The notes below the pieces were generated by a model that saw only the letters and a program-made list of their open reading frames with translations, searched no databases and was not told where the DNA came from. From Euzebya sp. (GTDB taxonomy: Bacteria; Actinomycetota; Nitriliruptoria; Euzebyales; Euzebyaceae): a DNA stretch of 64,000 bases. Position numbers and translations under genes: made by a program. Below, in pieces: positions 20,453 through 38,865 of the stretch; the stretch's first letter is position 1, and each line of letters opens with the position of its first letter. Location: positions 1,099 to 65,098 of the forward strand of contig JBPCKA010000013.1 in the NCBI GenBank assembly GCA_051004735.1, given 5' to 3'.

Positions 20453-20484
20453 TCACTGCCCATCGGTCAACGGAGGCGCCAGTC

Positions 20485-22206: not shown

Positions 22207-22327
22207 GGGATGCTCCTCACGGGGCGTCAAGCCCCACGTTCTGCTGTGGAGATTCAGATTCTGCTCCGGACTGTGCCGATCACTGCCCAACTTGTCAAGG
22301 GGCGGGATCGGATCGGAGTCCACACAA

Positions 22328-22344
22328 TTAGAATGCCATTCTGC
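22328..22344. promoter_or_regulatory. IclR-box-like inverted repeat TTAGAATGCCATTCTGC (core AGAAT-N3-ATTCT at 22330-22342) upstream of the SBP gene
   Basis: Seen in sequence; one of four near-identical palindromes in this window (see 27803, 37890, 38791). Confidence 0.55.
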
Positions 22345-22355
22345 TAGCTCACGGC

Positions 22356-24254
22356 TCAAGCGAGCGGATCGGCACCGCTAAGCCAGTCGGCATCGGAGCG
22401 TGGTATCGAGGCGACCAGTCGCTCGGTGTAGGGATGGGATGGGTTGTCCAGCACCTGATCAATGGGGCCTGACTCCACCACCTCGCCCTGATACAGGACA
22501 TAGATCCGTTCTACGACCTGACGGACGACGGCAAGGTCATGGGTGATGAATAGGTAGGCGACCCCCAGGTCCTGACGCAGTTCCTTGAACAGATTGAGGA
22601 TCTGTGCCTGCACCGACACGTCCAGTGCTGACACCGGTTCATCGCACACGATCAATCGCGGTCGAACGGCCAGCGCACGAGCGATTGCGACCCGTTGTCG
22701 CTCGCCGCCCGACAAGGCAATCGGTTTGCGAGTGGCGTAGCTGGCTGACAGTCCGACGCGCTCTAGCAGCTCGCCCACGTGCGATGAGGAGGATTCATGG
22801 CGACCGCGTCCGACCTGCAGTGCTTGTTTCAGGGTGAATCCCACCGTCCGGGCCGGATTCAATGACGAGTAGGGGTCCTGAAAGATGATCTGCACTGTGC
22901 GACGCAGTCGCGTGCGGTCCGTGGTGTCGAGCGCCAGGTAGTCAACCGCGGAGATGCCGGCGATGTCGATCTGACCACTGTTGGGCGTTTCCAGCCCCAC
23001 CAGGCACCGTCCGAGCGTGGTCTTACCCGATCCGGACTCACCGACCAGGCCGACCCCCTCGCCCTCACCCACCGTCAGGTTCACGTCCTTCAGCGCCTGC
23101 ACCTCGCGCACCGCAGCTTTGCCGGCCCCTGCCTGATAGATCTTGTTCAGGTCTCGAACCTGCACCAGTTGCTGATCATCTGGTGGCGCGATGATCTTTA
23201 CTGGCTGTTCGGAGACGTGTCGTAGACCAGCCATCTCCGGGCGGATGTCGTCCAGCCGCACGCAGTTGGTGAAACGCCCTGGCTCGACTTCCTGCAGGGG
23301 TGGTGAGCCATCGTGGCACGCCTTCGCAGCCCAGGTGCAACGCGGAGCGAATGCGCAGCACGTCGCGACCGAATCCGGGTCAGGCACCGAGCCCTTGATA
23401 CCGGCCAGCACGGGGACACGGCGGTCCCCGGGGGGCTCGGACAGCAGCAGCCCCAGGGTGTAGGGGTGCAATGGTTCAGCTTCAAGGGCGGTCGCCGACG
23501 CGATCTCCAGCAACGACCCCGCATACAGGACATAGACCCGGTCACACATCGAGAACGCCACCCGCAGATCGTGGGTGATCAACACCAGGCCCATACCCCG
23601 CTTCGCCTGCAGGGACTTCAACAAGATGAGGATGTCCCGCTGGGTCGTCACATCCACCGCCGTCGTTGGCTCATCGGCGATCAGAATCGCGGGATCACGC
23701 GCCAGGCTCGCCGCAATTCCGACCCGTTGGCGCATCCCCCCCGAGAGTTGGAAAGGGAAGCGGACCGCAACCCGGGGGTCGCTGATGCCCACCTCATTCA
23801 ACCGCTCCAGTGCCTGGGCGTGGTGCCCTCCACTCACGCGCTGGCCAGACCGATCTGCTCGAAGACCCTCCTCCAGATGGATACCGCAGCGCAGCAGTGG
23901 GTTGAGCATGGTGTAGGGGTCTTGCAGCACCAGGCCGATCTCGCCACCACGGACCTGTCGAAGCCGTCGCTCAGGCAGATCAAGCAGGTTGTCCTTGCCG
24001 TACTGGACCACCCCTGTGGCCGACAGCCCCGCGGGCAGCAACCCCAGCAGAGCACGTGCCGTCATGGACTTTCCGCTACCTGATTCACCGACGATCCCGA
24101 TTGTCTCACCGGTTCCCAAGGTCAGATCGACATCGCGCACGATTGTCCGACGACGTCCCCCCAACCGGCTGGTGATGGACAGACCCCGCACTTTCAGCAG
24201 CGCCGGATCCGAGACTGAATTGACCTGTTCCCGCACGGCTTGCCCCACGATCAT
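22356..24254 (-). CDS. ABC transporter ATP-binding protein with two fused ATPase domains (DppD-DppF fusion type)
   Basis: Two complete sets of Walker A (GESGSGKSM / GESGSGKTT), signature ([15 protein letters not shown] / LSGGERQRVAIARAL) and Walker B motifs in one 632-aa ORF. Confidence 0.85.
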   Translation of the reverse strand: MIVGQAVREQVNSVSDPALLKVRGLSITSRLGGRRRTIVRDVDLTLGTGETIGIVGESGSGKSMTARALLGLLPAGLSATGVVQYGKDNLLDLPERRLRQVRGGEIGLVLQDPYTMLNPLLRCGIHLEEGLRADRSGQRVSGGHHAQALERLNEVGISDPRVAVRFPFQLSGGMRQRVGIAASLARDPAILIADEPTTAVDVTTQRDILILLKSLQAKRGMGLVLITHDLRVAFSMCDRVYVLYAGSLLEIASATALEAEPLHPYTLGLLLSEPPGDRRVPVLAGIKGSVPDPDSVATCCAFAPRCTWAAKACHDGSPPLQEVEPGRFTNCVRLDDIRPEMAGLRHVSEQPVKIIAPPDDQQLVQVRDLNKIYQAGAGKAAVREVQALKDVNLTVGEGEGVGLVGESGSGKTTLGRCLVGLETPNSGQIDIAGISAVDYLALDTTDRTRLRRTVQIIFQDPYSSLNPARTVGFTLKQALQVGRGRHESSSSHVGELLERVGLSASYATRKPIALSGGERQRVAIARALAVRPRLIVCDEPVSALDVSVQAQILNLFKELRQDLGVAYLFITHDLAVVRQVVERIYVLYQGEVVESGPIDQVLDNPSHPYTERLVASIPRSDADWLSGADPLA

Positions 24255-25117
24255 CGGGCCCGACCCCGGTCACTCAGGCGCTCTTCCAACCAATCGCCCA
24301 GCAGGTTCATGCTGGCAGCCGTCAACACGATCATCACGCCAGGCGCAAGCGCGGCTGCGGCGTTCGTGAACAGCAACGTGCGACTTTCGGCCAGCATCCG
24401 ACCCCAGTCAGCGGTTCCCGGCCCCACACCCAGCCCCAGGAACGACAACGCAGACAAGGCCAGCAAGCCGTAGGCGAAGCCCAGAAAGGCACTCGCCAAC
24501 ACCAGCGGAGTCAGATTCGGCCAGATGTGCTGCAGCGCGACACGGCGACTGGATAGTCCCAGGACTCGCGCCGCCTCGACATAGGCACGTGGGCGTTGCT
24601 CCAGGGTTGCGGCTCGGATCAACCGCGTGTCATAGGGGGAACTGAGCAGAATCAGCACCGCAACGGCACGCCAGTACCCACCGCCCAACACACCGACGAC
24701 CACGATCGCCACCAGATGTCCTGGTAGGGCGAACATCAGGTCAGCCCAGCGCAGGACCACCATGTCGATCCGTCCCCCGCGGTAGCCGGCCAGCAGCCCC
24801 AACGCTCCGCCGAGGACCGTGGCGCCCAGGGTGATCAGGGCCGGGCCGACGATCGCCGTGCGGGTCCCGACGATCACCCGGGACAACACGTCGCGGCCAA
24901 GATCATCGGTGCCCAGCCAGTGTGCCCAACTAGGGCTGCTCACTCCCGTGGCCAGATCCTGGGCAGACGGGCCCTGGGGTGCGACTGTCGGGCCGAAGAC
25001 CGCCAGGATGATGACCGTCACGACGAACAGAAAGCACAACGCGATGAGGATCGGAAACCTGGTACGCCATCGTGCCGGCTCCCGCACACCGGCCGCAGCG
25101 ATGGTGACCTCACTCAT
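24251..25117 (-). CDS. ABC transporter permease (DppC-like)
   Basis: Permease with conserved N-terminal HWLGTDDLGRDVLSRV motif and EAA loop. Confidence 0.8.
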   Translation of the reverse strand: MSEVTIAAAGVREPARWRTRFPILIALCFLFVVTVIILAVFGPTVAPQGPSAQDLATGVSSPSWAHWLGTDDLGRDVLSRVIVGTRTAIVGPALITLGATVLGGALGLLAGYRGGRIDMVVLRWADLMFALPGHLVAIVVVGVLGGGYWRAVAVLILLSSPYDTRLIRAATLEQRPRAYVEAARVLGLSSRRVALQHIWPNLTPLVLASAFLGFAYGLLALSALSFLGLGVGPGTADWGRMLAESRTLLFTNAAAALAPGVMIVLTAASMNLLGDWLEERLSDRGRAR

Positions 25118-26082
25118 CCGCCGACCCGACTGAAGCGAATCCGTGGATCGATGAAGAGGTACAACACATCAGTCAGCAGATTCACCGCGATGACCACGGT
25201 CGCGGTCAGCATCGCCAGGCCCTGGACCACCGCCACATCCTGAAACGTCACCGAGTCGATCAGCAATGACCCCAGGCCTGGCAGGGCGAAGGTCACCTCG
25301 ACCAGAACCGCGCCGCTGAGCATGACACCCAGAATCAAGCCGCTGGCAGTGACCACGGGAATCAGGGCATTCCGCAATCCGTAGGTGACCAGCAGCCGCC
25401 GAGGGGACAACCCCCTGGCGCGTCCGAAGACCATGTAGTCCTGGTCCAACGCGGCAATCATTCCGGTTCGGGTGAACTTCAGAACAGGAGCCACCCCGGT
25501 CAACGCCAGAGCCAGCGCCGGTAACGTCAGATGCCACAACTGATCGGGGAAGCTCCGCCCCTGTCCGAACGCCGGAAACCAGCCCAGGACCACGGCGAAC
25601 ACATACAACAGGAACACCCCGGTGGCGAACGCAGGGGCGCTGACCCCGATGACGCTGAAGGTCACCGCCGCGCGGTCGACCGCGGAGCGCTTCTTGGTGG
25701 CCGCCAGAACTCCCAGAGGTACCCCGACAGTCATGATGATGACAAAGGCGTAACCGCCCAGCAGCAGGGTCAACCCCATCCGGTCCCGCAGAGCCTGGAC
25801 CACCGGTTCCGTGGTCCGTGTCGACGTGCCGAAATCCAGCCTGCTGGCATCGGCTACCCAGTAGCCGTACTGACTCAGGAATGATTCGTCCAGGTGGTAG
25901 CGCGCCCGTATGGCCTCAACGACTTCGGGGTCCATTGGCCGCGTGCTCCCGATCAGCACCTGTTCGGGAGTTCCGGGGGCAACGAACTGCAGTGAGAAGA
26001 TCCCAAAGGAGATGATCGCCAGCAGCACGACCATGCCTACCAGTCGCTTGGCCACGAAGGTGAGCGTGCGTCGAGCGTCCAC
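25114..26082 (-). CDS. ABC transporter permease (DppB-like)
   Basis: Permease; EAA loop FGRARGLSPRRLLVTYGLRN. Confidence 0.8.
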   Translation of the reverse strand: MDARRTLTFVAKRLVGMVVLLAIISFGIFSLQFVAPGTPEQVLIGSTRPMDPEVVEAIRARYHLDESFLSQYGYWVADASRLDFGTSTRTTEPVVQALRDRMGLTLLLGGYAFVIIMTVGVPLGVLAATKKRSAVDRAAVTFSVIGVSAPAFATGVFLLYVFAVVLGWFPAFGQGRSFPDQLWHLTLPALALALTGVAPVLKFTRTGMIAALDQDYMVFGRARGLSPRRLLVTYGLRNALIPVVTASGLILGVMLSGAVLVEVTFALPGLGSLLIDSVTFQDVAVVQGLAMLTATVVIAVNLLTDVLYLFIDPRIRFSRVGG

Positions 26083-26085
26083 GGT

Positions 26086-27771
26086 CTAGGAGACCGGGCG
26101 GACGTCAGATACCCAGATGCCCTTCTTGAAGAACAGCACACTCAACCCGACGAACTCGTAGTTGTCGCTGATCGCCATCGCGATGTCTTCCCACCACAGC
26201 GGGAGATAGGGGAGGTCTTCGGAGATGATCTGCATCACCTCCGCGATCGCGGCAGCCCGCTCCTCCACGTCGGTGGTCAACCCCTGCTCGTCGATCAGCT
26301 CATCCACCCGGGGGTTGATGTAGTTCGGAATGTTGAAGCCACTGGGACGGGCGAACTCACTGGGCAGCATGTAGCTGATGTAGTCGGCCGGATCCAGCAA
26401 CTCCGGAGTGAAGCTGAGCGCTCTGAAGCCGATGTTCTGATGTCCCACGACATCGGCTATCTCCTCCCCCAGCGGCACCTCCTCGACCGTGAGGTCAACG
26501 CCGATCTGGCTCAGATTCTCACGCAGGTTGAGCGCGGCCCTGCCCAGCTCCGGTTTGGCATCGGCATACTTCAGGGTGGCCGAGAACCCGTCGGGAAAGG
26601 CGGACTGGGCAAGCTCCTCACGCGCGAGATCCAGGTCGAACTCGTAGGGCCGCAAGGATGCATAGATCTCCTCCACGCGCTCGCTGGGGATATCCAGACC
26701 ATCCCACTGCCCGCGGGGCACAAGCGATGTCGCGGCTTCTCCGTACCCGGAGAGCAGTCCGTCGACCAGGCCTTCTCGATCCAACGCATGGGCCACGGCG
26801 CGACGAACGTGGACGTCGCCCCACAACTCGTCCTCCAGATCCCAGGCGAAGAAGGCGGGTAGCAGCCCCGGCGCGGACTCCACCCGCAGTCCATCGATAC
26901 TCTCCCAACCGCCCGCTTCACTGACCGGGATGAACATGAACCCGTCCGCTTCCTGGGCACGCATGGCCAACTGCGCGGTCTGGGAGTCCGCGATGTATTG
27001 GATTGCAACCTCACGGAATCGGGGGGTGTCCCCCCAGTAATTGTCGTTTCGGACGAGTTCAACAACCTCGTCCGCGCGGAAGTCAGTCAGAACGTAGGGG
27101 CCGGTGCCGATGAGGGTGTCATCACCCGGTGTGCCAAGACGCTCACCGACCTGTTCACCGAACGCCCGGCTGACAATGGGAGCATAGGACGGCACGTACT
27201 GCCAGAAGGCCGCCGGCCGCGTGAGTGTCACCGTCAACTCGTTGTCCCCCGTGACCTCCATGGTGTCCACGTCCACGAACGCAGAGTTCAGGGACGACTC
27301 GACCTCAGGGTCGCGGTGGCGTTCCCACGAATAGATCACATCCTCCACCGTGAGAGGGCTGCCATCAGAAAACATGACATCCGAGCGGATCCGGTAGACA
27401 TAGGTTTGCGGATCAATCTCTTCCCACGACTCAGCCAACCATTCGGTCATCAGCAAGTCCTCATCAAGGGTCAGCAGACTCTCGGTGACCAGCCCCTGAG
27501 CAGCCTTGGACCCTTGATCCAATGCCTTGGCGGCATCCAGACTGACCAAAGAGTTGACGATCCAGGTCAGGCGGTCCACATCGCCACCACCGGATTGCTC
27601 GGAACTGCCGGGTGCCGGCTCGCTGGTGGACTCATCAGGGCTGGCCGCACCCTCACATGCCGCCAGGAGCATCGGAGTTGAGATGGCAGCGCCGGCAAGG
27701 CCAAGACGCTTCAACAACTGCCGCCTGCTCAGTGACTGGCTTGGGGTTCCTGGGGTGATTCGACCTTGCAT
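26086..27771 (-). CDS. ABC transporter substrate-binding protein, family 5, Tat-like signal plus lipobox
   Basis: ORF 26086..27912. Start at MQGRITPGTPSQSLSRRQLLKRLGLAGAAISTPMLLAAC (27771). Confidence 0.75.
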   Translation of the reverse strand: MQGRITPGTPSQSLSRRQLLKRLGLAGAAISTPMLLAACEGAASPDESTSEPAPGSSEQSGGGDVDRLTWIVNSLVSLDAAKALDQGSKAAQGLVTESLLTLDEDLLMTEWLAESWEEIDPQTYVYRIRSDVMFSDGSPLTVEDVIYSWERHRDPEVESSLNSAFVDVDTMEVTGDNELTVTLTRPAAFWQYVPSYAPIVSRAFGEQVGERLGTPGDDTLIGTGPYVLTDFRADEVVELVRNDNYWGDTPRFREVAIQYIADSQTAQLAMRAQEADGFMFIPVSEAGGWESIDGLRVESAPGLLPAFFAWDLEDELWGDVHVRRAVAHALDREGLVDGLLSGYGEAATSLVPRGQWDGLDIPSERVEEIYASLRPYEFDLDLAREELAQSAFPDGFSATLKYADAKPELGRAALNLRENLSQIGVDLTVEEVPLGEEIADVVGHQNIGFRALSFTPELLDPADYISYMLPSEFARPSGFNIPNYINPRVDELIDEQGLTTDVEERAAAIAEVMQIISEDLPYLPLWWEDIAMAISDNYEFVGLSVLFFKKGIWVSDVRPVS

Positions 27772-27800
27772 AGCAGCTCCAGTGGGAATCGGATGCGTCG

Positions 27801-27817
27801 ATAGAATACCATTCTGC
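27801..27817. promoter_or_regulatory. IclR-box-like inverted repeat ATAGAATACCATTCTGC (core 27803-27815) in the divergent promoter region between SBP gene and DMFase-like gene
   Basis: Seen in sequence; 5-3-5 palindrome AGAAT-ACC-ATTCT. Confidence 0.55.
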
Positions 27818-27880
27818 TGACAGGCGCAAGGACTTTGGCTCCGCGTCTCGACATCTGCATCCAGCTTTGGGAGTACGCCA

Positions 27881-30094
27881 GTGCCTGACGACGAAACCAC
27901 CCCTACGCACAACCCGGCCGAGCTCTCGCAGCCCTCACCGTGGGATCTGACGTTGGTCGGTTACGCAGACCCCTGGAGCGTTGCTCCGCAAGAGACCGTG
28001 CGTTTCATGGTCAGCAGTTCCCATTCGACCTATCAGGCCCAGATCGTCAGGTTGCTCCATGGCGATGATCGGCTCGAGGCGCCTGGTGTGAAGGAAGAGG
28101 TGGTTCCCACTCAGGTGGACGGGGAGTATGCGGGCCGACAGCTTTCCTATCCCACCGGTTCTGCGGTCATCGTGCCTGATCACCCCTCCCTGCGCCTGAC
28201 CGACAGTTTCACCCTGACCGCATGGATCTACCCGACGACCCCAGACAAGGGCCTTCAAGGCCTGCTGACAAAATGGTCACCGCATGATCAGGTGGGCTAT
28301 GCCTTGATGATCAATGCCCAAGGGCAACTCGAATTGTGGCTGGGCGCAGAAGGCCAGGAACCAGCCCGCTTCGCCAGCGGCGCAGGCCTGCGTAAACACC
28401 AGTGGTACTTCGTCGCGGCCACGTATGACCCTCACGCAGGGTCGGTACAGGTGTCACAGATCCCCTTCCCCTTCTATCCCAACGACACGACCGATGTCCA
28501 TCGCGAGCATCCTGTGGCTGCGGGGACCTGTGGATCTGCGAGCACACCGTTGGTGATGGCGGCCCTGAGCCAGACAATCAACCACTACAACGGAAAGATC
28601 GAGGCGCCGACCATCTACGGTGAGGTGTTGTCCCACGAAGCGTTGCTTGCCGTCGCGGGTCGAACACCCCTCGCCGGCACTACAGGATCGATCGTTGCTG
28701 CCTGGGATTTTGCTCTTGATACGCCCACCGACCAAATCCGCGACGTATCAGGCAGCAACCTGCACGGACGCACAATCAACCTGCCTGCCAGGGGCTCAAG
28801 CAGCCATCTGTTCCATGGTGGCGAGGGCTCCTGGGCCGTGGCGCCCGAAACTCACGCAGCCCTGCACTTTCACGAGGACGATCTTGAGGACTGCAGGTGG
28901 GATGTTGCGTTCGAACTGGCACTACCCGATGACCTGCCCAGCGGGGTCTATGCCGCGAAGCTGAGCGCAGGCAGCAGCCGGTATCACATTCCGTTCGTGG
29001 TGCGTCCTCCCAACCGACGCGCCACCGCACCCGTGCTGGTGCTGCTACCAACCAATTCCTACCTTGCTTACGCCAACTTTCGTGAGGAGTTCGCCGAGCG
29101 GCACGGCGTCCTTGGTCTGTACCACGATCATGGTGACGGCAGCGCAGTGTTGTACTCCTCAGCCCGAAGGCCGATCGTCAACTTCCGTCCGGGATCCAAT
29201 TTCGACATTCTGGGTGAGGCTGGAGCGCCACACCAGTTCAACGCCGATCTGTACCTGATCGACTGGTTGACGGCCAAAGAGATCGACTTTGATGTTGCCA
29301 TAGATCACGACCTGCAGACAGAAGGTGCCGACCTGTTGGGGCAGTACCGCGTCGTCATCACAGGAACACACCCCGAGTACTGGTCTGGGACAATGCTTGA
29401 TGGGCTTGAGGCCTACCTCGCCGGGGGTGGCCGTCTGATGTATCTGGGCGGCAACGGATTGATCTGGACCACGACCTTCGATCCCCACCGACCCCATGTG
29501 ATCGAACTGCGGCGCGGCGGCGGCGGCGTCCGCAACGCCAGCCCCGGAGAGCGCTATCACACCACCACGGGAGAGCTGGGTGGGCCGTGGCGAGCGCGTG
29601 GCCGTCCCCCGAATCTGCTGCTGGGCGTCGGCTCCATCGGCCAGGGCTTTGATCGCTCCTGTGGCTACCGCCGGACGCCGGAAAGCTTTGATCCCCGCTC
29701 GTCATGGATCTTCGACGGTGTCGGTGAGGACGAACCAATCGGAGAGTTCGGCCTGACCATGGGTGGCGCCGCCGGTTTTGAGGTCGATTGCGCAGACCGC
29801 TTCTTCGGCACTCCACCGCACGCCCTGGTGGTGGCCTCGGCAACGGAGTTCTCCGATACCTACGAGCACCAGCACCCAGTCCACATAGCTGGGACCGACG
29901 TCGACCTTCATGAACCCCTGCGCAGCGACATGGTGTTCTTCGAAGGCCCGAATGGGGGGGCAGTGTTCTCCGTAGGCTCGATCGCCTACTGCGGGTCCTT
30001 GTCACATAACGACTACGACAACAACGTCTCACGGATAACCCACAACGTCCTGCGACGCTTCGCCTCCGACCAGTCGACTGACCAACGTGACTGA
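27881..30094 (+). CDS. N,N-dimethylformamidase large (beta) subunit-like protein (DmfA2 homolog family)
   Basis: 737 aa, GTG start with GGGAG RBS. Collinear with the DMFase large-subunit family: N-terminal jelly-roll segment then a C-terminal catalytic-type region. No small-subunit gene nearby. The 3' end overlaps the next gene by 8 nt. Confidence 0.65.
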   Translation: MPDDETTPTHNPAELSQPSPWDLTLVGYADPWSVAPQETVRFMVSSSHSTYQAQIVRLLHGDDRLEAPGVKEEVVPTQVDGEYAGRQLSYPTGSAVIVPDHPSLRLTDSFTLTAWIYPTTPDKGLQGLLTKWSPHDQVGYALMINAQGQLELWLGAEGQEPARFASGAGLRKHQWYFVAATYDPHAGSVQVSQIPFPFYPNDTTDVHREHPVAAGTCGSASTPLVMAALSQTINHYNGKIEAPTIYGEVLSHEALLAVAGRTPLAGTTGSIVAAWDFALDTPTDQIRDVSGSNLHGRTINLPARGSSSHLFHGGEGSWAVAPETHAALHFHEDDLEDCRWDVAFELALPDDLPSGVYAAKLSAGSSRYHIPFVVRPPNRRATAPVLVLLPTNSYLAYANFREEFAERHGVLGLYHDHGDGSAVLYSSARRPIVNFRPGSNFDILGEAGAPHQFNADLYLIDWLTAKEIDFDVAIDHDLQTEGADLLGQYRVVITGTHPEYWSGTMLDGLEAYLAGGGRLMYLGGNGLIWTTTFDPHRPHVIELRRGGGGVRNASPGERYHTTTGELGGPWRARGRPPNLLLGVGSIGQGFDRSCGYRRTPESFDPRSSWIFDGVGEDEPIGEFGLTMGGAAGFEVDCADRFFGTPPHALVVASATEFSDTYEHQHPVHIAGTDVDLHEPLRSDMVFFEGPNGGAVFSVGSIAYCGSLSHNDYDNNVSRITHNVLRRFASDQSTDQRD

Positions 30095-30557: not shown

Positions 30558-30559
30558 CG

Positions 30560-31540
30560 ATGCAAACATTCGCCTATCTCCGACCGTCTGACGCTGCCGC
30601 TGCAATTACTGGGCACCAGGGTGATCACAGCGCCTGTTTCATCGCGGGGGGCACGGATGTCCTGGGGCTATTGAAGGACGGGGTCATCGCGCCTGACGTA
30701 CTGGTGGATCTGAACGATCTTCCGCTGCAGGGCATCGAGGCTGGCACGTTGGGAGTGGTGATCGGTGCTCTGGCCCGACTGGCCGACGTGGCTGTTCATC
30801 CCGACATCAGGCGAGGCTTCCCTGTCCTCAGCCAGGCGATCATGGCCGCCGCATCGCCGCAACTCCGCAACATGGCCACTCTCGGCGGCAATCTGCTCCA
30901 ACGGACACGGTGCGGCTACTTCCGCGATCCGGTGATGCCCTGCAACAAGCGGGAAACCGGCAGCGGCTGTTCCGCGATTTCGGGAGCCAGTCGGTCACAC
31001 GCCGTCTTCGGCACCAGTCTGGACTGTGTCGCCGTTCACCCCTCTGACCCGGCTGTGGCGTTGCTGGCCCTGGACGCGGTGATCCGAACCGACGGCCCGC
31101 ATGGCCCCCGAGGCATCCCGATCGTGGACCTGCACCAGTTGCCAGGTCAAACTCCCGGCCGGGAAACCGTTCTGGAGCCAGGTGAGATCATTGTGGCCAT
31201 CGAGGTGCCCGCTACTCCCCTCGCGCGGCGCTCGTGCTATGTCAAGGTGGCAGACCGGGCTTCGTTCGACTTCGCACTGGTCGCTGCCGCCGTTGCGATG
31301 GATCTCCGGGACGGAATCGTCAGAACCGTCCGCGTGGCCCTGGGTGGTGTGGCCCCGATCCCGTGGCGCGCAGTCCCCGTCGAGGACGCGCTGTCTGGCC
31401 AGCCACTGAACCGGGCGACGATTGAGGCTGCGGCCCATGCCATGACGATTCATGCCCAACCACTGCGGGACAACGCGTTCAAGGTCAACCTCTTACCTCA
31501 CGTGATCCGCCGAGCCCTGATGACCGTCGAGGGACTGTAG
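30560..31540 (+). CDS. FAD-binding medium subunit of molybdenum hydroxylase (CoxM/XdhB-like)
   Basis: AGGTDVLGLLK and NMATLGGNL FAD-binding motifs. Confidence 0.85.
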   Translation: MQTFAYLRPSDAAAAITGHQGDHSACFIAGGTDVLGLLKDGVIAPDVLVDLNDLPLQGIEAGTLGVVIGALARLADVAVHPDIRRGFPVLSQAIMAAASPQLRNMATLGGNLLQRTRCGYFRDPVMPCNKRETGSGCSAISGASRSHAVFGTSLDCVAVHPSDPAVALLALDAVIRTDGPHGPRGIPIVDLHQLPGQTPGRETVLEPGEIIVAIEVPATPLARRSCYVKVADRASFDFALVAAAVAMDLRDGIVRTVRVALGGVAPIPWRAVPVEDALSGQPLNRATIEAAAHAMTIHAQPLRDNAFKVNLLPHVIRRALMTVEGL

Positions 31541-33684
31541 TGCGGCGCGAATCGGTGGGCCCTTCTGCCACCCGAGTTGACGGTCAGGTGAAGGTCAGCG
31601 GCGCGGCAACATACACCACTGACGTCGTCCTGCCGCAGCAGGTACATGCCGTCGTCGTGCAGGCCACCGTGGCGACGGGGCGCATCCGGCACATCGAGTT
31701 GGCGGCGTCGCTGGCAGCTCCGGGGGTCCTTGGCGTCCTCACTCACCACAACACCCCAGCGCTTGAGGAAGTGGCCACCTTCCCGCAGGGACCCGCAGGT
31801 CAGCGGATGGCTCCGCTTCAAAGCGATGTCGTGTACTTCGACGGTCAACCTGTCGCCGTCGTCATCGCTGAAACCAGGCTGCAGGCTGTCCATGCCGCAG
31901 AACTGGTCCAAGTGGACATTCAGCCCGGATCGCATGCGCCGTCACTGTGGACCGACCGTCCCGGCGCTGCACCGCTCAGCATCTTCGGGGAATCTCCGGA
32001 CTCTGTGCGTGGCAACCCCGACGCCGCACTGGCTGCGGCGGAGGTCCGCCTAGAGCGGCGGTACAGCACGCCGACCGAGCATCATCATCCACTTGAACCT
32101 GGTGCCACCGTTGCCTGTTGGGACGGCGACTCCCTGACGGTCTATGACAGCACCCAATGGATCTTCGGTGTGCGTGAAGCGCTGTGTGTGACATTGGGAT
32201 TGTCCCAGGATCGCGTACGGGTGCAGTCCCCCTTCGTCGGGGGCGCGTTCGGGAGCAAGGGCATGGTATGGCCCCACGTCGTCTTGACGGTTCTGGCCGC
32301 ACGCCATGTTGGTCGGCCCGTGAAGTTGACGCTTGACCGCGGGCAGATGTTCACCCTGCTGGGGTACCGCTCGCCGACGATCCAGCGCCTGTCCCTGGGG
32401 GCGACAGCGTCGGGAACCTTGACCGCGCTCGTCCACGACACCACCCAGCAGACCTCAATGTTTCAGGAGTTCGCCGCTGGTGTCGGCTTCATGTCGCGCA
32501 GCCTCTACGTCTGTCCGAACGTCGCAGTGCGCCACCGTGTGCTTCCCATCAATGCGCCGACCCCAACGGTCATGCGTGCGCCTGGCGAGGCCGTCGGGAG
32601 CTTCGCGCTGGAGACCGCCATGGATGAGCTGGCGGTCACGCTGTCCGTCGATCCGATCCAACTTCGGCTTCGCAACCATGCTGAAATCGATCCCCATTCC
32701 GGCATGCCGTGGTCCAGCAACGCGTTACGCGAGTGCTATCTGCTGGGCGCTGACCGCTTCGGATGGGACGCCCGCAGCGCAGCACCCGGATCGATGCGAG
32801 ATGGCCATCTTCAACTTGGGTGGGGCGTGGCATCGGCGACATATGCGGTGAACAGTGAACCGGCAAACGCTTGGGTGCGTCTGCGCGCTGACGGAACGGC
32901 AACGGTCGCCTGCGGTACCCAGGATCTGGGAACCGGGACCTACACGACCATGGCCCAGATCGCTGCCGAGGCGCTGGGACTACCTGTGGATCATGTCTCA
33001 GCGGAGTTGGGCGACACCGAATTGCCTCGGGCACCCCATTCAGGCGGGTCACAAACCGCCGCCAGCGTGCTTCCCGCAGTGTGGTCGGCCGCCCAGTCTG
33101 TGATCGCCCAACTGAACTCACTGGCTCAGATGTCAGCAGCCAGGGAAAGCCCCAACGCCATCCTCCGGCGCCACGGCCTGGCGCAGATCGAGGGACGCAG
33201 CAGCACCCCGTCCCCCGGTGCCGCCAACCGCTTTGCCATGCAGTCCTTCGGCGCCCAGTTTGCCGAGGTCGCGGTGGATCCCGATCTAGCCCAGGTGAGG
33301 GTGACCCGCTTTGTGGGTGTCTTCGGCGCGGGCCGCATCGTCAACCAGACCACGGCCCGCAGCCAGATGATCGGTGGAATCGTCGGCGGAATCGGCATGG
33401 CACTGCTGGAGCGCACGGTGACCGATCCGCGCTCCGGGCGGGTGGTCTCCCCAAACCTCAGCGCGTACCTGGTTCCCACACAGGCAGACATCCCCGCGAT
33501 CGACGTCAGCTTTGTCGAGGAGGTTGATCCCCACGTCAACTCCCTTGGGATCAAAGGTGTTGCGGAACTCGGAATAGTGGGCGTGGCGGCCGCGATTGGC
33601 AATGCGATCTTCCACGCCACCGGCCGGCGGATCAGGGACCTACCGATCACCTGCGACACGTTGTTGGGTGCGACACACGGCTGA
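31540..33684 (+). CDS. Molybdopterin-binding large subunit of XDH-family molybdenum hydroxylase (aldehyde oxidase/CoxL-like)
   Basis: 714 aa; GTG start overlapping the previous stop by 1 nt; GSKG, VRAPGE, GTQDLGTGT, GAGRIVN and GVAELG segments typical of the Mo-cofactor subunit. Confidence 0.85.
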   Translation: MRRESVGPSATRVDGQVKVSGAATYTTDVVLPQQVHAVVVQATVATGRIRHIELAASLAAPGVLGVLTHHNTPALEEVATFPQGPAGQRMAPLQSDVVYFDGQPVAVVIAETRLQAVHAAELVQVDIQPGSHAPSLWTDRPGAAPLSIFGESPDSVRGNPDAALAAAEVRLERRYSTPTEHHHPLEPGATVACWDGDSLTVYDSTQWIFGVREALCVTLGLSQDRVRVQSPFVGGAFGSKGMVWPHVVLTVLAARHVGRPVKLTLDRGQMFTLLGYRSPTIQRLSLGATASGTLTALVHDTTQQTSMFQEFAAGVGFMSRSLYVCPNVAVRHRVLPINAPTPTVMRAPGEAVGSFALETAMDELAVTLSVDPIQLRLRNHAEIDPHSGMPWSSNALRECYLLGADRFGWDARSAAPGSMRDGHLQLGWGVASATYAVNSEPANAWVRLRADGTATVACGTQDLGTGTYTTMAQIAAEALGLPVDHVSAELGDTELPRAPHSGGSQTAASVLPAVWSAAQSVIAQLNSLAQMSAARESPNAILRRHGLAQIEGRSSTPSPGAANRFAMQSFGAQFAEVAVDPDLAQVRVTRFVGVFGAGRIVNQTTARSQMIGGIVGGIGMALLERTVTDPRSGRVVSPNLSAYLVPTQADIPAIDVSFVEEVDPHVNSLGIKGVAELGIVGVAAAIGNAIFHATGRRIRDLPITCDTLLGATHG

Positions 33685-33690
33685 TGCGGA

Positions 33691-35376
33691 TCAGGGCACC
33701 GTGGTCGCCCCGGTGCTGGCCGAACCGACCAGCGAGGCGTACTTGGCGAACACGCCCGAGGGGTAGCGGGATGTCGGGGGTTCCCAGTCCTTGAGCCGCG
33801 AGGCAACGTCGACGTCCAACACCTCGATGGTGCGACTGGCCACGTCGATCCTGATCATGTCCCCATCCTCAAGGGCGGCCAGTGGACCGCCGACCGCAGC
33901 CTCAGGCGCCACATGTCCGATCATGAACCCGTTGGTCGCGCCACTGAAGCGCCCATCGGTGATTAGGGCCACTGAATCTCCCAGGCCCTCGCCCAAGATG
34001 GCCCCCGTGACCGAGAGCATCTCGCGCATCCCCGGTCCTCCCCGCGGTCCCTCATAGCGGATGACCACAACGTCGCCAGGTGCAATCCGTCCCTCGATGA
34101 CCGCGGCATACCCATCCTCCTCGCAGTCAAAGATCCGCGCGGGGCCGGTGTGGGAGGTCAAGGTGTGCGCGGTGATCTTCACCACCGATCCCTGTGGTGC
34201 CAGGTTGCCGCTGAGCACGACCAGGCCACCCTCTGAGCGAAGTGGCCGGTCCAGGGGCAGCACGACCTGCTGACCCTCGGTTTCGACGACGTCCTGAACC
34301 TCCTCGCCCAGACTTCGGCCGGTGACGGTCAGCGCTGAGCCGTCGATGTACCCACCGTCGATCAGTCGGCTGGTCAGCAGGGCAATGCCGCCGGCGCGGT
34401 GCAGGTCGACGGCGGCGAAACGTCCGCCCGGCAACAGGTCGCACAGCAGTGGCGTCCGTCTGCTGGTGCGATCGATGTCCTCCAGGGTCAGATCCACGCC
34501 AACCTCCTTGGCCAGTGCCAGCAGGTGGAGAACGGCATTGGTCGACCCGCCACTTGCCGCCACCGCCGCCACGGCGTTGTCAAAGGCAGCACGAGTCAAG
34601 ATCTGACGGGGGCGGATATCTCGCGCCAACACATCCATGATCAGGGCACCGGCCCGCTCGGCTGCCTGGCCCTTGGTCTGGTCCACCGCGGGGATGGAGT
34701 TGAAACCCACCGGCGACAGCCCGATGGTCTCCATCACCATCGACATCGTGTTCGCGGTGAACTGTCCGCCGCAGGCTCCCGCACCCGGGCAGGCGACCCG
34801 CTCCATCTCGTGAAGGTCCTCCTCGTCAAGCAGACCAGCCGCAACCGCTCCGATTGCCTCAAACACCTCGCCCATTGCCAGATCACGGCCGCGGAATCGA
34901 CCGGGCATGATCGAACCGCTGTACAACACCATTCCGGGTCGGTCCAACCTGGCCAAGGCCATCGCCGCAGCCGGAACGGTCTTGTCACACGCAACGATGC
35001 AGACCATGGCGTCGAACATGTGTCCTCGACCGACCAGTTCGATCGAGTCGGCGATCAGCTCTCGACTGACCAGCGACGCCTTCATCCCCTCGGTGCCCAT
35101 CGTGACCCCATCGGAGATCGCAATGGTATTGAACTCCATCGGGGTGCCCTCAGCCTGCCGCACACCTGCCTTGACCCGTTCCGCCAGGCTGCGATGGTTC
35201 AGGTTGCAGGGCATGGTCTCGATCCATGCATGTGACACGCCCACGATGGGCCGCTGCAGATCCTCCGGTGAGAACCCTGTGCCGTACAGGTAGGCCCTGG
35301 CCGCGGCGCGCGAACGCCCCTCATACATGACGCGACTGGGCAGCTGCGCCATGTTGATCTGGGGAGATGCGCTCAT
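33691..35376 (-). CDS. IlvD/EDD-family dehydratase (dihydroxy-acid / sugar-acid dehydratase)
   Basis: ORF 33691..35685. Start at MSASPQINMAQLPSRVMYEGRSRAAARAYLYGTGF (35376). CPGAGACGG Fe-S cluster motif and C-terminal ITDGRFSGATNGFMIGHVAPEA signature. Confidence 0.85.
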   Translation of the reverse strand: MSASPQINMAQLPSRVMYEGRSRAAARAYLYGTGFSPEDLQRPIVGVSHAWIETMPCNLNHRSLAERVKAGVRQAEGTPMEFNTIAISDGVTMGTEGMKASLVSRELIADSIELVGRGHMFDAMVCIVACDKTVPAAAMALARLDRPGMVLYSGSIMPGRFRGRDLAMGEVFEAIGAVAAGLLDEEDLHEMERVACPGAGACGGQFTANTMSMVMETIGLSPVGFNSIPAVDQTKGQAAERAGALIMDVLARDIRPRQILTRAAFDNAVAAVAASGGSTNAVLHLLALAKEVGVDLTLEDIDRTSRRTPLLCDLLPGGRFAAVDLHRAGGIALLTSRLIDGGYIDGSALTVTGRSLGEEVQDVVETEGQQVVLPLDRPLRSEGGLVVLSGNLAPQGSVVKITAHTLTSHTGPARIFDCEEDGYAAVIEGRIAPGDVVVIRYEGPRGGPGMREMLSVTGAILGEGLGDSVALITDGRFSGATNGFMIGHVAPEAAVGGPLAALEDGDMIRIDVASRTIEVLDVDVASRLKDWEPPTSRYPSGVFAKYASLVGSASTGATTVP

Positions 35377-35413
35377 AATCGTCTGTCCTTCTGTTGACCC
35401 TGATTGGGCACTG

Positions 35414-36181
35414 CTAATAGATGCGGGCGAGCAGGCCGCCATCCACCACGATGTCGATGCCGCTGAGATATGAGGCATCGTCGGAGGCGAGGAACAACGC
35501 GACGTTGGCGACGTCGCGGGCAGAGGCAAAGCGGCGTAGCGGGTACCGCTCGGTGACCTGGGCTCGGGCGACCTCAGGATCTGGTTGAAAAGCAAAGAAC
35601 TGTTCCACCATCGGCGTGTCCACATCGCCCGGACAGATGGTGTTGCAGCGGATGTTTTCTGGGCCGTGGGCCGTGGCGACCGCACGGCACATCGCGCGCA
35701 ACCCGCCCTTCATGGCGCCGTAGGCCGCCATGTCCGGATCGCCCACGATGCCAAGCAGCGAAGCGGTGATGATGATCGACCCTCCACCGCGCGCCCGCAG
35801 GTGCGGCATCGCCTGCTGGATGCCCAGGTACACACCACGCAGGTTGGTTGCGTGCATCGCGTCCCAGTCATCCTGCGGGGTGTCCTCCAACAGTCCCATT
35901 GCCTGGACCGCAGCGTTGGCGAACAGCACGTCGAGTCCGCCGAAGTGATCCACGCAATCGTTGATCACCTGGGCGTTGCCCTGGCTGGTGGAAATGTCGG
36001 CGACCACTGCACGTGCCTTTCCCCCTGCATCGACGATGGTCTGGACCGTGGCCCTCGCACCGACTTCATCGATGTCGGCACACACCACCTGTGCGCCTTC
36101 CTCGGCGAACCTGATCGACGCCGCGCGACCGATACCCCGTCCGGCACCTGTCACCACCGCAGCCTTGCCGGACAGTCTCAC
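35414..36181 (-). CDS. SDR-family oxidoreductase
   Basis: TGAGRGIGRA Rossmann motif, NAA, YGAMKGG catalytic Tyr-x3-Lys. Confidence 0.85.
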   Translation of the reverse strand: MRLSGKAAVVTGAGRGIGRAASIRFAEEGAQVVCADIDEVGARATVQTIVDAGGKARAVVADISTSQGNAQVINDCVDHFGGLDVLFANAAVQAMGLLEDTPQDDWDAMHATNLRGVYLGIQQAMPHLRARGGGSIIITASLLGIVGDPDMAAYGAMKGGLRAMCRAVATAHGPENIRCNTICPGDVDTPMVEQFFAFQPDPEVARAQVTERYPLRRFASARDVANVALFLASDDASYLSGIDIVVDGGLLARIY

Positions 36182-37512
36182 TGGACCGCCCGTAGGTCAT
36201 GCCGGTCGTGGGCCGACGCCAACTCAGTGTTCTTCTCGGGCTCCGCCACCACGGTCGCGGCTGCCGCAGCGACCGCCTCACGGGTCTGGTCAAGATCATC
36301 CTGGGTGTGTGCTGCCGACACGTACAGCAGACCGCGTGAGATCACGTTAACCCCGTGGTCCAGCAGTGCCTCGGCGAACCGTGCATAGGTAGTGGTGTCG
36401 GTATCCAACGTGTCAGCCTGTGTGTCCACGGGCTGGGAGCTGCAGAAGGCGTGAGCCATGCCCCCCAACTGGTTGACGACAAGCGGTAAACCGGCGGCGC
36501 CACATTCCTGACGTAACAGTTGGGCCAACGCATCGCCCATGGCATCAAGTCTGGGATAGATCTCATCCCCATGATCTTCCAGTTCACTGATCGCCGCCAG
36601 CGCGGCGCTGGCACACACCGGGTTGGCGTTGAAGGTGCCCACGTGCTTGACCCGCCCTGCCACGACCTCATCCATCACATCGCGGCGACCTGCCACCGCA
36701 CTGATCGGGAAGCCGGCCCCCAAGGCCTTGCCCAGCACGACCAGGTCAGGTACCACCCCGAATCGTTCCTGTGCCCCGCCCAGTGCCAGTCGGAAGCCGG
36801 TGATCACCTCATCAAAGACCAACAACGCACCCGCTTCTGTGATCAGTTCTTGCGCCGCCTGCAGATAGCCTGGGTCGGGAAACAGACAACCGCCGTTGAC
36901 CGCTAGCGGTTCCATGATCACGGCCGCGACGTCATCGCTCAGCGCCCCGCGAAGCGCACCAAGGTCATTCCAGGTACACATCGTGACCGCTGATGACGCC
37001 TGAGGATCCTGACCACCGGTGGAGGGAAGCGCAGCGGCCATGCCAGGAATTCCAATGGCCAGGGGATCCAACCAGCCGTGGAAGTGGCCCAGGAACTTGA
37101 TCACCCTGCGGCGACCTGTTGCTGCCCGCGCAATCCGCAGTGCAGCGTGAACTGCTTCGCTCCCACTGTTTGAGAACACGCAAAGGTCAGCGCACGGCAC
37201 CGTTCGGCACACCGCCTCGGCAAGTTCGGCCTCCAACGGATGACAGGCGCCGTAGCCAATCCCTGTTGACAGTTGCTTCTCAACCGCTCTGGTCACCCGC
37301 AGTGGGGAATGTCCCAGCAGCATCGGGCCGAACGCCAGGGCGTAGTCGATGTAGGTATTGCCGTCGACATCGCTCAGGTGGGCGTCCTTGCCCCCGACCA
37401 TGGTGATCGGAACAGGTCGTTGTGGAGCGCGGTATGCCGTTGCGACGCCGCCGGCCAGGCTGCGGCGGGCACGGTCCTGCTGCTCACGCGAACGTGCGTA
37501 GCGATCAGTCAT
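36178..37512 (-). CDS. Class-III (aspartate aminotransferase superfamily) PLP-dependent aminotransferase / aminomutase
   Basis: SGSEAV...DEVITGFR...LGKALGAGFP (PLP-Lys) signature of omega-aminotransferase/GSA-aminomutase family. Confidence 0.8.
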   Translation of the reverse strand: MTDRYARSREQQDRARRSLAGGVATAYRAPQRPVPITMVGGKDAHLSDVDGNTYIDYALAFGPMLLGHSPLRVTRAVEKQLSTGIGYGACHPLEAELAEAVCRTVPCADLCVFSNSGSEAVHAALRIARAATGRRRVIKFLGHFHGWLDPLAIGIPGMAAALPSTGGQDPQASSAVTMCTWNDLGALRGALSDDVAAVIMEPLAVNGGCLFPDPGYLQAAQELITEAGALLVFDEVITGFRLALGGAQERFGVVPDLVVLGKALGAGFPISAVAGRRDVMDEVVAGRVKHVGTFNANPVCASAALAAISELEDHGDEIYPRLDAMGDALAQLLRQECGAAGLPLVVNQLGGMAHAFCSSQPVDTQADTLDTDTTTYARFAEALLDHGVNVISRGLLYVSAAHTQDDLDQTREAVAAAAATVVAEPEKNTELASAHDRHDLRAVQ

Positions 37513-37877
37513 CCAGCAGTCCCGACAGCACCCGGGTCGAAGTAGGCCCTGACGCTGGTGAACTTGCCGTCACGGACCTGCACCACATTGACCCCGCGGA
37601 ACGCGTGACGACCACCGTCATGGTCAGTCAGGACCGCCTCCCACTCAAGGCAGGCCTGGTCGCCGTCGCTGACCTCGTGAACGATGTCAACTTCCAACCC
37701 GGGATAGTCCCGGATCTCATCGGCGTAAAAGGTGGCAATCTCCTCGTGTCCACGCAACGCCTCGCCCGAGGGTGGAAAGACCACTGCATCGGTATGGTAA
37801 TAGCCCAGCACAGCCGATAGATCCCGCCGGCACTCTGCCGCCCAGTAGGCCTCCGCTACCTCGCGAGGTGATGTCAT
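37509..37877 (-). CDS. SnoaL-like / NTF2-family small protein (ketosteroid-isomerase fold)
   Basis: 122 aa; AEAYWAAECRRDLSAVLGYYHTDAV...YFDPG is the SnoaL/NTF2 pattern; first gene of a four-gene operon with 4-nt overlaps. Confidence 0.65.
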   Translation of the reverse strand: MTSPREVAEAYWAAECRRDLSAVLGYYHTDAVVFPPSGEALRGHEEIATFYADEIRDYPGLEVDIVHEVSDGDQACLEWEAVLTDHDGGRHAFRGVNVVQVRDGKFTSVRAYFDPGAVGTAG

Positions 37878-37887
37878 AGGTGGTTCA

Positions 37888-37904
37888 GCAGAATACTATT
37901 CTGC
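37888..37904. promoter_or_regulatory. Perfect 17-bp inverted repeat GCAGAATACTATTCTGC between the SnoaL operon start (37877) and the iclR start (37959)
   Basis: Seen in sequence; the 8-1-8 palindrome is the best copy of the four AGAAT-N3-ATTCT sites. Confidence 0.65.
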
Positions 37905-37958
37905 GGATGACTGCGCAAGATGTCGTTATCTGGACGGCAGCCATCAGGACAGCGTGTG

Positions 37959-38774
37959 ATGATGTGGACCGTCCCCGAACTGGAACACCGTGTGAAGCCT
38001 CCCAACTACCCAATCGAGTCAGTCGACAACGCGCTGAAGCTGGTCCTCGCGTTGATGGACCGACCGGCCCTGGCCGTGTCTGAGGCAGGGGAACTGCTTG
38101 AGGTCGCTCCGTCGACGGCGCACCGCCTGCTGTCGACCCTGGCCTACCGCGGCTTCGTCGAACAGGATCCTGCCACCCGCCTGTACCGCTCTGGGCCCGT
38201 GCTCCTGAAGTTGGGACTCACTGCAGTCCGCAACCTGGATCTACGCCGCCGTGCCAGACCGATCATCGAAGACCTCAGCCAGGAGGTCGGGGAGACCGTC
38301 AATCTGGTGATACTCCAGGGCACTGACATCCTCTTCATCGACTGTGTGGAGGCACCTAGCATCGTGCGGGTGGGCTCACGAATGGGTGTGCTCCTGCCAG
38401 CTCATTGCACCGCAGGCGGCAAGGCCCTGCTGTCCACCCTGTCAACCGAGGAACTGCGGGAGCTCTACCCCGAGCCGCGCCTGGAACAACTGACCACGAA
38501 CTCCTTCACCAAGCGCGCGGACCTGGAACAGGAATTGGAAGTCACGCGGACACGCGGGTTCGCGACGAATGATGAGGAGAGCGAGAACGGCTTGAGCGCC
38601 TTCGCCGCCCCGATCTGCGACCGGGAGGGGCATGCCCTCGGTGCCATCGCCATCGCCGCCCCCAGCGGTCGAATCACAGCGGACCGTATCACTGTGATCG
38701 GTGAAGCCGTGCAACACGCCGCGCAACAGATCAGCGACAGTGCGGCCGACGCGATCAGCGTAATGGTTGACTGA
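37959..38774 (+). CDS. IclR-family transcriptional regulator
   Basis: N-terminal wHTH (SVDNALKLVLAL...LAVSEAGELLEVAPSTAHRLLSTLAYRGFVE) and C-terminal IclR effector domain (GLSAFAAPICDREGHALGAIAIAAP). Confidence 0.85.
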   Translation: MMWTVPELEHRVKPPNYPIESVDNALKLVLALMDRPALAVSEAGELLEVAPSTAHRLLSTLAYRGFVEQDPATRLYRSGPVLLKLGLTAVRNLDLRRRARPIIEDLSQEVGETVNLVILQGTDILFIDCVEAPSIVRVGSRMGVLLPAHCTAGGKALLSTLSTEELRELYPEPRLEQLTTNSFTKRADLEQELEVTRTRGFATNDEESENGLSAFAAPICDREGHALGAIAIAAPSGRITADRITVIGEAVQHAAQQISDSAADAISVMVD

Positions 38775-38788
38775 CTCCGTCCCGCATG

Positions 38789-38805
38789 ACAGAATCAGAT
38801 TCTGG
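38789..38805. promoter_or_regulatory. Inverted repeat ACAGAATCAGATTCTGG (core 38791-38803) downstream of iclR and upstream of the MBL/gentisate operon
   Basis: Seen in sequence; 7-3-7 palindrome CAGAAT-CAG-ATTCTG. Confidence 0.55.
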
Positions 38806-38865
38806 TAGCGGCGAAGCTGGTGCGCACGGCCTTGTTCGGGCCGCTCGGGGAGCTGAGGAGTTGTA

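Follow-up and report, generated by a model that had tools for sequence, protein, structure and literature searches.

Regulators of the IclR family recognise palindromic operators which have been divided into two groups, with the consensus GKTYCRYW3-4RYGRAMC for group 1 and TGRAACA-N1-2-TGTTYCA for group 2 (Suvorova and Gelfand 2021, PMC8222616). Sites composed of three boxes were predicted in 32 orthologous groups of the family, and most site centres fall 20-80 bases ahead of a start codon, their distribution peaking at -22 (PMC8222616). For GenR of Corynebacterium glutamicum, a regulator connected with 3-hydroxybenzoate and gentisate, the motif ATTCC-N7(5)-GGAAT is listed (Table 1 in PMC8222616). 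Here we analyse a stretch of 64 kb from contig JBPCKA010000013.1 of Euzebya sp., called the window in the following, which contains an island of about 27 genes (approximately 9830-42350, about 32.5 kb) and within it the gene of an IclR-family transcription factor. A palindrome whose fuller consensus is CAGAAY-N3-RTTCTG recurs in the promoter gaps of this island. From the comparison of sequences we consider it likely that these palindromes are the operators of the IclR-family regulator encoded at 37959-38774 and that they unite the region 9830-42350 into one regulon, repression being the most likely mode of control.

Relation to described IclR-family systems

The predicted operator motif, xxGAAY-N3-RTTCxx, has the architecture of the group 2 operators, to which the A/T-rich palindromes of the IclR/AllR type in E. 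coli and the TGGAAC-N3-GTTCCA predicted for Pseudomonas belong. It shares with them the inverted GAAY/RTTC, the odd centre and a length of about 15-17 bases, and the likeness extends to the placement in divergent promoters, including that of the regulator itself, and to the distances from start codons. The pattern usual for the family, namely a site in the own promoter and centres at -20 to -80, is also found here, with one exception at -130. The outer bases, however, are TG...CA in group 2 and CA...TG (CAGAAY) in the island, and the genes regulated through group 2 operators in PMC8222616 differ from the uncharacterised set of the island. The helix sequence APSTAHRL of the Euzebya regulator was not found in the searched parts of the tables of that paper, which does not prove its absence from them.

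The site in front of the gentisate-dioxygenase-like gene (site 5) consists of three boxes of alternating direction, as do the three-box sites of PcaU and PobR of Acinetobacter. Because its first pair, ATTCTGT-AGG-ATGGAAC, shows the spacing of group 1 and agrees with the consensus at 12 of 14 positions by our own count, and because its second pair, TGGAAC-N3-GTTCTG, fits group 2, we regard it as a three-box site. In contrast to the PcaU/PobR type, the third box is found in this regulon at the dioxygenase promoter only, whereas the other sites have two boxes.

A comparison with GenR had already been drawn in an earlier, sequence-only reading of this locus, and as an analogy it stands. GenR is likewise an IclR-type regulator of an actinobacterium, it is encoded beside a trio of gentisate-dioxygenase, fumarylpyruvate-hydrolase-type and mycothiol-isomerase-type genes, and several sites are found in its cluster. 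The operators, however, are not the same: the half-sites of the GenR motif are oppositely oriented and have a longer spacer, whereas the island has AGAAY-N3-RTTCT with a spacer of 3 bases, and the island motif does not fit ATTCC-N7(5)-GGAAT. The GenR regulon is also far smaller than the one proposed here, which in addition comprises transporters, hydrolases, a molybdenum enzyme and an IlvD-type operon.

The regulator itself is classed as an IclR-family protein outside all named subgroups tested. Both of its domains score above cut-off (HTH_IclR, PF09339, 46.7 bits; IclR_C, PF01614, 155.7 bits), and among solved structures that of the Thermotoga IclR is nearest (1mkm, E = 3e-29). To the curated NCBIfam models it shows full-length similarity covering both domains, but it stays under every subfamily cut-off, with 191.8 of the required 350 bits for BhcR, which is the best match, 158.4 of 284.75 for PcaR/PcaU/PobR, 129.3 of 380 for IclR, 127.1 of 275 for KdgR and 112.1 of 406 for AllR. 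The protein is 100% identical to P0001 from a metagenome-assembled genome of Euzebya sp., and the recognition-helix segment VAPSTAHRL is invariant across the 18 closest homologues. On annotated plasmids the best IclR matches reach 47-49% identity, and their surroundings are unrelated (Arthrobacter sp. 68b, p2MP).

Predicted operator sites and their conservation

The core sequence AGAAT-N3-ATTCT has exactly four matches in the window, beginning at 22330, 27803, 37890 and 38791, and none in 100 dinucleotide-preserving shuffles. As the window has a G+C content of 64%, such an A/T-rich core of 10 bases is especially improbable by chance. All four copies fall in intergenic gaps, and these are the very gaps in which the sequence-only reading had placed four palindromes at promoter positions. 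With the flanking C and G included, two of the four are perfect copies of CAGAAT-N3-ATTCTG, and in the other two a T replaces the first C.

A position weight matrix was trained on 21 sites, all of them from other genomes, and was then run on the window. Copies 1-4 took the first four ranks (23.5-26.7 bits), followed by site 5 (15.0 bits); these top five are all intergenic, and the matches within coding sequences of the window all remain at or below 8 bits. Site 5 corresponds to a weaker partial site (39876-39904) of the earlier reading, which proved genuine by its rank in the window and by its conservation in three other loci. The former count of four sites is too low, and at least six operator sites are predicted in the island (Table 1), their centres lying at -19, -28, -38, -50, -63, -69, -72 and -130 with respect to start codons.

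Two of the sites are found in front of the substrate-binding protein (SBP) gene SBP2, with their centres 80 bases apart (22336 for site 1 and 22256 for site 1b). The centre of site 1 lies 130 bases 5' of the ATG at 22206, which is preceded by GAGGAG, and the degenerate site 1b (22249-22263) lies just 3' of a conserved promoter-like element, TTGACA-17-CACAGT (22298-22270, minus strand). Site 1b is probably genuine, since a related locus (L092, see below) keeps the spacing of 80 bases together with TTGACA, ACAGT and the ribosome-binding site. In the window and in L092 a conserved CAGAAC/CGGAAC half-site is also seen 20 bases past the proximal CAGAAT of site 1b. Site 4 forms part of a longer inverted repeat, CCGC...GCGG (38781-38813), which has about -11 kcal/mol on both strands, begins 7 bases past the iclR stop and might be a weak terminator too, though it has no T-tract.

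Palindromes of this kind could also act as RNA hairpins in terminators or attenuators, or they could be copies of an element similar to repetitive extragenic palindromic (REP) sequences; both explanations appear extremely improbable to us. Copies 1 and 4 do lie just 3' of stop codons, and folding of copies 3 and 4 plus flanking bases gives -13 and -10.8 kcal/mol, which is better than shuffles. However, the better folding of these two is due to the flanks only, and copies 1 and 2 fold at -1.8 and -7.2 kcal/mol, neither of them better than shuffles. With such inconsistent folding (-1.8 to -13 kcal/mol), no T-tract terminators at the copies and no Rfam match within 9000-43000, a hairpin, terminator or other RNA element was rejected. 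Furthermore, the half-sites are conserved, only their fifth position varying (T or C, with A or G as partner), whereas the three central bases vary freely, and the sites stand at operon starts, some of them in divergent promoters. For the 64 kb covered, a REP-like repeat is unlikely, as the copies have no more than 15-17 bases in common, their flanks are not conserved and they lie at operon 5' ends.

For phylogenetic footprinting, DNA was fetched around homologues 53-80% identical to the regulator, and a scan with one genome per species added 80 loci; the relatives belong to the Euzebyales, to other Actinomycetota and to the Limnocylindria (Chloroflexota). Footprinting of the same intergenic regions, as the sequence-only reading had proposed, bore the motif out: across the compared genomes of two phyla, in which the regulator is 44-80% identical, the palindrome is kept at orthologous promoters while the flanks have diverged. 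Over 12 non-redundant orthologous loci (198 kb), 11 exact copies of the 15-mer were counted, and 19 when up to one mismatch was allowed, compared to 0.03 and 0.63 in shuffles. In an alignment of six orthologous SnoaL-side intergenic regions the palindrome forms the sole invariant block. Among the 21 sites from other genomes, each comprising 15 bases in total, G-A-A at half-site positions 3-5 and the mirror T-T-C are invariant, and position 6 is T or C.

Within these loci the palindrome is found between SnoaL and iclR (L010, L012, L003), between SnoaL and the molybdenum-hydroxylase genes (L009, L011) and between iclR and the MBL gene (L010, L018; the ortholog of site 4 is L010 6019-6033). It is also present 5' of the SBP2-type transporter (L017, L018), of the DUF6351 gene (L007, L014, L018) and of an M20 peptidase gene (L006). 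All three boxes of site 5 are kept 5' of the cupin gene in L006, L008 and L009, which makes four genomes including the window, and the two Limnocylindria loci L018 and L019 have four sites each. A site in autoregulatory position accompanies most homologues that are at least 52% identical. This value was rejected as a functional boundary for the motif, as regulators of 44-48% identity share both motif and gene set.

Partner genes recur in the closer loci in changing combinations: the genes of operon D, the molybdenum hydroxylase, the MBL gene, the SBP2-type transporter, the genes of the DUF6351 hydrolase, the cyclase-family protein, the GH78-like protein and the SGL lactonase, and the cupin-FAH-DinB trio. 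The four genes of operon D adjoin the IclR gene in L010, L012, L009 and L011, and the molybdenum-hydroxylase subunits are linked to it in L006, L008, L009 and L011. Genes of operon A form clusters with the IclR gene in L007, L014, L018 and L092-L095, and at least eight loci (L003, L006, L008, L009, L092-L095) show a linkage between the regulator gene and the trio of cupin, FAH and DinB genes.

Because most loci had been collected via the regulator, which makes the argument circular to some extent, four long-contig loci (L092-L095) were fetched through the DUF6351 hydrolase instead. Each of the four carries an adjacent IclR gene (the complete ones 44-48% identical, with the helix VGRSTAHRLL), the same gene set and matrix matches in its promoter gaps; a DMFase-like (dimethylformamidase-like) gene is present in L092 and the fused-ATPase transporter in L095. 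The site of L093 and L094 lies in the divergent iclR/DUF6351 gap, its centre some 24-26 bases ahead of the start codon. L092 has equivalents of site 1 (4075-4089) and site 1b (4155-4169) with the same spacing of 80 bases 5' of its SBP gene, as well as of site 4 (21124-21138) and site 5 (20030-20044), and when its SBP promoter is aligned to that of the window, TTGACA, the -10-like ACAGT, the ribosome-binding site and both operators are seen to be kept.

These four loci also bear on the suggestion that a different transcription factor from elsewhere in the genome binds the palindrome, with the IclR gene as a passenger or a co-regulated target. In its favour it can be said that the loci were mostly gathered through the IclR gene, whose presence is therefore partly given by construction. 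The loci obtained via DUF6351, however, all carry the adjacent IclR gene, no other regulator gene occurs in more than one annotated locus (this was not systematically tabulated), the architecture of the motif is typical of IclR sites, and most loci have a site in autoregulatory position. We therefore hold a foreign factor to be quite improbable and propose the adjacent IclR protein as the cognate regulator.

Some further observations were made in the collected loci. Directly 5' of iclR, L017 (429-463) has a weak site, CGGCACTTCGTTCTG, whose centre is 20 bases away from that of a perfect one, CAGAATATCATTCTG. A tandem spacing of 18-22 bases has been reported for tetramers of the IclR family, which this pair matches. 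In L012 a second IclR paralogue (4446-5329, 46% identical) adjoins an NMT1-type ABC transporter and has a weak related site, CAGAAAGACGTTCCG, upstream. An identical IclR protein, P0008, occurs in two contexts (L003 7240-7782 and L004 9488-10001), once after SnoaL, aminotransferase, SDR and IlvD genes, and once, with the operator retained, after cupin and FAH genes, a truncated DinB gene and a SnoaL-like remnant missing from the gene calls; this reflects either a rearrangement or an assembly artefact. Finally, the homologues of 46-49% identity in Mycobacterium spp. and related assembled genomes (L034, L044, L046, L049, L064, L071) have no motif beside their own gene. In most of these loci a conserved CTACAGAAATATnTTCYG is found about 5.2-7.2 kb downstream, counted from where the homologue starts, and in L049 and L071 the related downstream site deviates at its centre.

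Proposed regulation

According to our proposal, the IclR protein would occupy its own divergent promoter (site 3) and at least five further sites, with two ABC-transporter operons, the DMFase-like/molybdenum-hydroxylase genes, the SnoaL-aminotransferase-SDR-IlvD operon, the MBL gene and the gentisate-type ring-cleavage genes as targets. It would probably do so as a dimer of dimers, as other members of the family do, repressing by occlusion of the promoters until a pathway intermediate brings relief, and it would regulate itself through site 3. A tetramer may bind cooperatively, or by looping the DNA, to the two sites on either side of the SBP2 promoter. What we infer here comprises the binding itself, its repressing effect, the oligomeric state, and the nature of inducer and substrate.

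Repression is favoured because several sites overlap -10-like hexamers or lie 19-38 bases before a start codon. The half-sites TAGAAT, CAGAAT and TATTCT are similar to -10 hexamers, and a strict sigma-70 scan returned a promoter-like site at copy 4 only, TTGACT-17-CAGAAT, whose -10 hexamer is the left half-site; all other -10/-35 assignments are our own weak reading from the consensus. By this reading site 2 presents TAGAAT towards the DMFase-like gene and TATTCT towards SBP1 and would leave a leader of 25 bases with GGAG ahead of the SBP1 ATG. Of the two SBP2 sites, the proximal one starts just past the -35/-10 pair, which is conserved, and about 70 bases separate this pair from the distal one on its upstream side.

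The IclR family includes activators and dual regulators as well. GenR is cited as an example of a dual regulator (Table 1 in PMC8222616), and the Euzebya protein could in the same way use the palindromes as operators and yet activate these promoters, or act as activator or repressor depending on the promoter. Sites 1, 2 (on the DMFase-like side), 3 (on the iclR side) and 4 would suit an activator, being centred 63-130 bases upstream. However, no promoter fits downstream of sites whose centres are only 19-28 bases from a start codon, and the same holds for the window centres of -19, -28 and -38 and for those of about -24 to -26 that L018, L093 and L094 show. In addition, the half-sites coincide with -10-like hexamers, and the proximal SBP2 site is found just downstream of the conserved -35/-10 pair. 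We consider activation unlikely for these reasons and prefer repression.

Several points nevertheless weigh against a regulon repressed by this protein. The operators are assigned by sequence comparison, and since most loci were retrieved via the IclR gene, the co-occurrence of regulator, targets and motif is partly built in, so that another factor encoded elsewhere is not fully separable. The motif count covers 64 kb of the source genome, and a genome-wide excess is possible. The promoter elements are guesses from the consensus, and an activating or dual role, as in several IclR members, is possible. Site 1, moreover, lies at -130 and thus outside the usual range of -20 to -80.

On the other side, the restriction of the palindrome to promoters, its co-conservation with the genes, the loci obtained via a target gene and the fit to the family all argue for what the sequence-only reading had claimed, namely that the palindrome ties these operons to one IclR regulator. 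That reading had also called the regulon a candidate undescribed one, which agrees with our search of the literature on IclR/gentisate operators, dimethylformamidase, the Euzebya IclR and DUF6351, where no description of it was found. The type of regulation, with an IclR factor, palindromic operators and autoregulation, is an ordinary one, whereas this gene set is undescribed.

Gene content of the island and its possible function

The gene calls in Table 1 combine database calls with tblastn labels, and the annotation by Pfam and NCBIfam agreed with the gene functions assigned before. For the transporter genes of operon B all NCBIfam matches stay under the curated cut-offs.

Table 1. Predicted operator sites, regulator and operons of the Euzebya island (positions in the window; scores from the position weight matrix)
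Feature	Position	Strand	Sequence or product	Remarks
Site 1 (distal, SBP2 operon)	22329-22343; core 22330-22342		TAGAATGCCATTCTG; core AGAATGCCATTCT	23.5 bits; between fused-ATPase stop (22356) and SBP2 ATG
Site 1b (proximal, degenerate)	22249-22263	- (as read)	CAGAATCTGAATCTC	9.4 bits, window rank 6
Site 2	27802-27816; core 27803-27815		TAGAATACCATTCTG; core AGAATACCATTCT	25.9 bits; divergent gap, centre -38 from SBP1 ATG (27771) and -72 from DMFase-like GTG (27881)
Site 3	37888-37904; core 37890-37902		perfect 17-base palindrome GCAGAATACTATTCTGC; core AGAATACTATTCT	26.7 bits; divergent gap, centre -19 from SnoaL ATG (37877) and -63 from iclR ATG (37959); autoregulatory position
Site 4	38790-38804; core 38791-38803		CAGAATCAGATTCTG; core AGAATCAGATTCT	23.8 bits; core begins 16 bases past iclR stop and finishes 62 bases before MBL GTG (38866); centre -69
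Site 5 (three-box)	39877-39902; palindromic pair 39888-39902		ATTCTG-N5-TGGAAC-N3-GTTCTG; pair TGGAACGCAGTTCTG	15.0 bits, window rank 5; pair centre -28 from gentisate-dioxygenase-like GTG (39923)
IclR-family transcription factor	37959-38774	+	271 amino acids as annotated for the source genome	proposed cognate regulator
Operon A	9830-22206	-		tightly packed; Pfam
Operon A, first part	SBP2 20485-22206	-	SBP2, two permeases, two ATPases	
Operon A	15132-16442	-	DUF6351 alpha/beta-hydrolase	436 amino acids
Operon A	14149-15135	-	cyclase-family protein	
Operon A	11747-14152	-	GH78-like six-hairpin protein	
Operon A	10860-11789	-	SGL lactonase	
Operon A	9830-10939	-	asparaginase-II-like protein	last gene
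Operon B	22356-27771	-	peptide/nickel-type ABC transporter: SBP1, two permeases, fused double ATPase	Pfam
Operon B	26086-27771	-	SBP1	
Operon B	22356-24254	-	fused ATPase	
Operon C	27881-33684	+	DMFase-like protein and three-subunit molybdenum hydroxylase/aldehyde oxidoreductase	
Operon C	27881-30094	+	DMFase-like protein	LamG and DMFA2_C domains
Operon C	30087-33684	+	molybdenum hydroxylase or aldehyde oxidoreductase	2Fe-2S, FAD and Mo subunits
Operon D	33691-37877	-	SnoaL-like protein, class-III aminotransferase, SDR, IlvD-type dehydratase	
Operon D	33691-35376	-	IlvD-type dehydratase	ATG 35376
Unit(s) E	38866-42350	+	MBL-fold hydrolase, cupin, FAH-family hydrolase, DinB/MDMPI-like isomerase	
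Unit(s) E	38866-39846	+	MBL-fold hydrolase	
Unit(s) E	39923-41023	+	gentisate-1,2-dioxygenase-like cupin	GTG start
Unit(s) E	41838-42350	+	DinB/MDMPI-like isomerase	FAH-family hydrolase between cupin and DinB

The unit had been estimated at about 22 kb before, but it is larger, about 32.5 kb, since the SBP2 operon runs on leftwards without real gaps via five further genes to 9830. To its left the island is bordered by the gene of a cell-wall-binding protein, to its right by asd and ask. Around the region two large proteins with triple CWB2 domains are encoded (6931-9207, minus strand; 58194-62033, plus strand), one of them with a beta-helix region, which are probably surface- or S-layer-associated. 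The other transcription factor among the annotated genes of the window is a PadR-family regulator, whose gene is followed by that of a HAAS-domain protein (47020-48485, minus strand); it lies outside of the island and has no palindrome nearby.

The trio of cupin, FAH and DinB/MDMPI proteins looks like the actinobacterial gentisate route, with the cupin under the equivalog cut-off: it reaches 299.5 bits with the gentisate 1,2-dioxygenase model TIGR02272 (cut-off 442.1) and 285.3 bits with the model for 5-aminosalicylate dioxygenase (cut-off 650). The FAH domain scores 219.7 bits, MDMPI_N 25.5 bits (cut-off 24.2) and DinB_2 51.9 bits. Hydrolases are abundant in the island (DUF6351, cyclase-family, MBL, DMFase-like and asparaginase-II-like proteins), and M20 and S9 peptidases are found in relatives.

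Solved structures provided no lead to a substrate, as the DUF6351 protein has no PDB relative, the cyclase-family protein has only the uncharacterised 5ibz and the MBL protein only uncharacterised MBL-fold entries. The DUF6351 family is a large one: of 8000 candidates that were scored, 2607 proteins reach E <= 1e-40, most of them from metagenomes of Actinomycetota and Chloroflexota. They bear no informative names and have no relative in the PDB, and they appear as orphan enzymes with a conserved neighbourhood. On annotated plasmids, a Novosphingobium homologue of the hydrolase was found in an unrelated cluster with CoA-transferase and TRAP genes.

From the hydrolases, the GH78-like protein, the lactonase, the SDR, the IlvD-type dehydratase, the aminotransferase, the molybdenum hydroxylase and the peptide-type transporters one might speculate that the substrate is a conjugated, i.e. 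glycosylated or amide-linked, aromatic or N-heteroaromatic compound. Only tentatively, and as a rather doubtful extension of the above, we suggest that this widespread and uncharacterised island of Actinomycetota and Chloroflexota degrades such a compound by an undescribed route, the IclR protein sensing an intermediate through two-box, three-box and paired sites.

The motif unites about 27 genes, among them members of families without an assigned function such as DUF6351, the DMFase-like, cyclase-family and GH78-like proteins, in a unit that recurs in the poorly studied Euzebyales, Gaiellaceae, Nocardioidaceae and Limnocylindria. A defined regulator together with its operator offers an experimental handle, and its inducer could point to the substrate of an orphan pathway. 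For the IclR family itself, the three-box site and the pair of sites 80 bases apart represent natural test cases for the two alternative modes of dimerisation on DNA that have been proposed.

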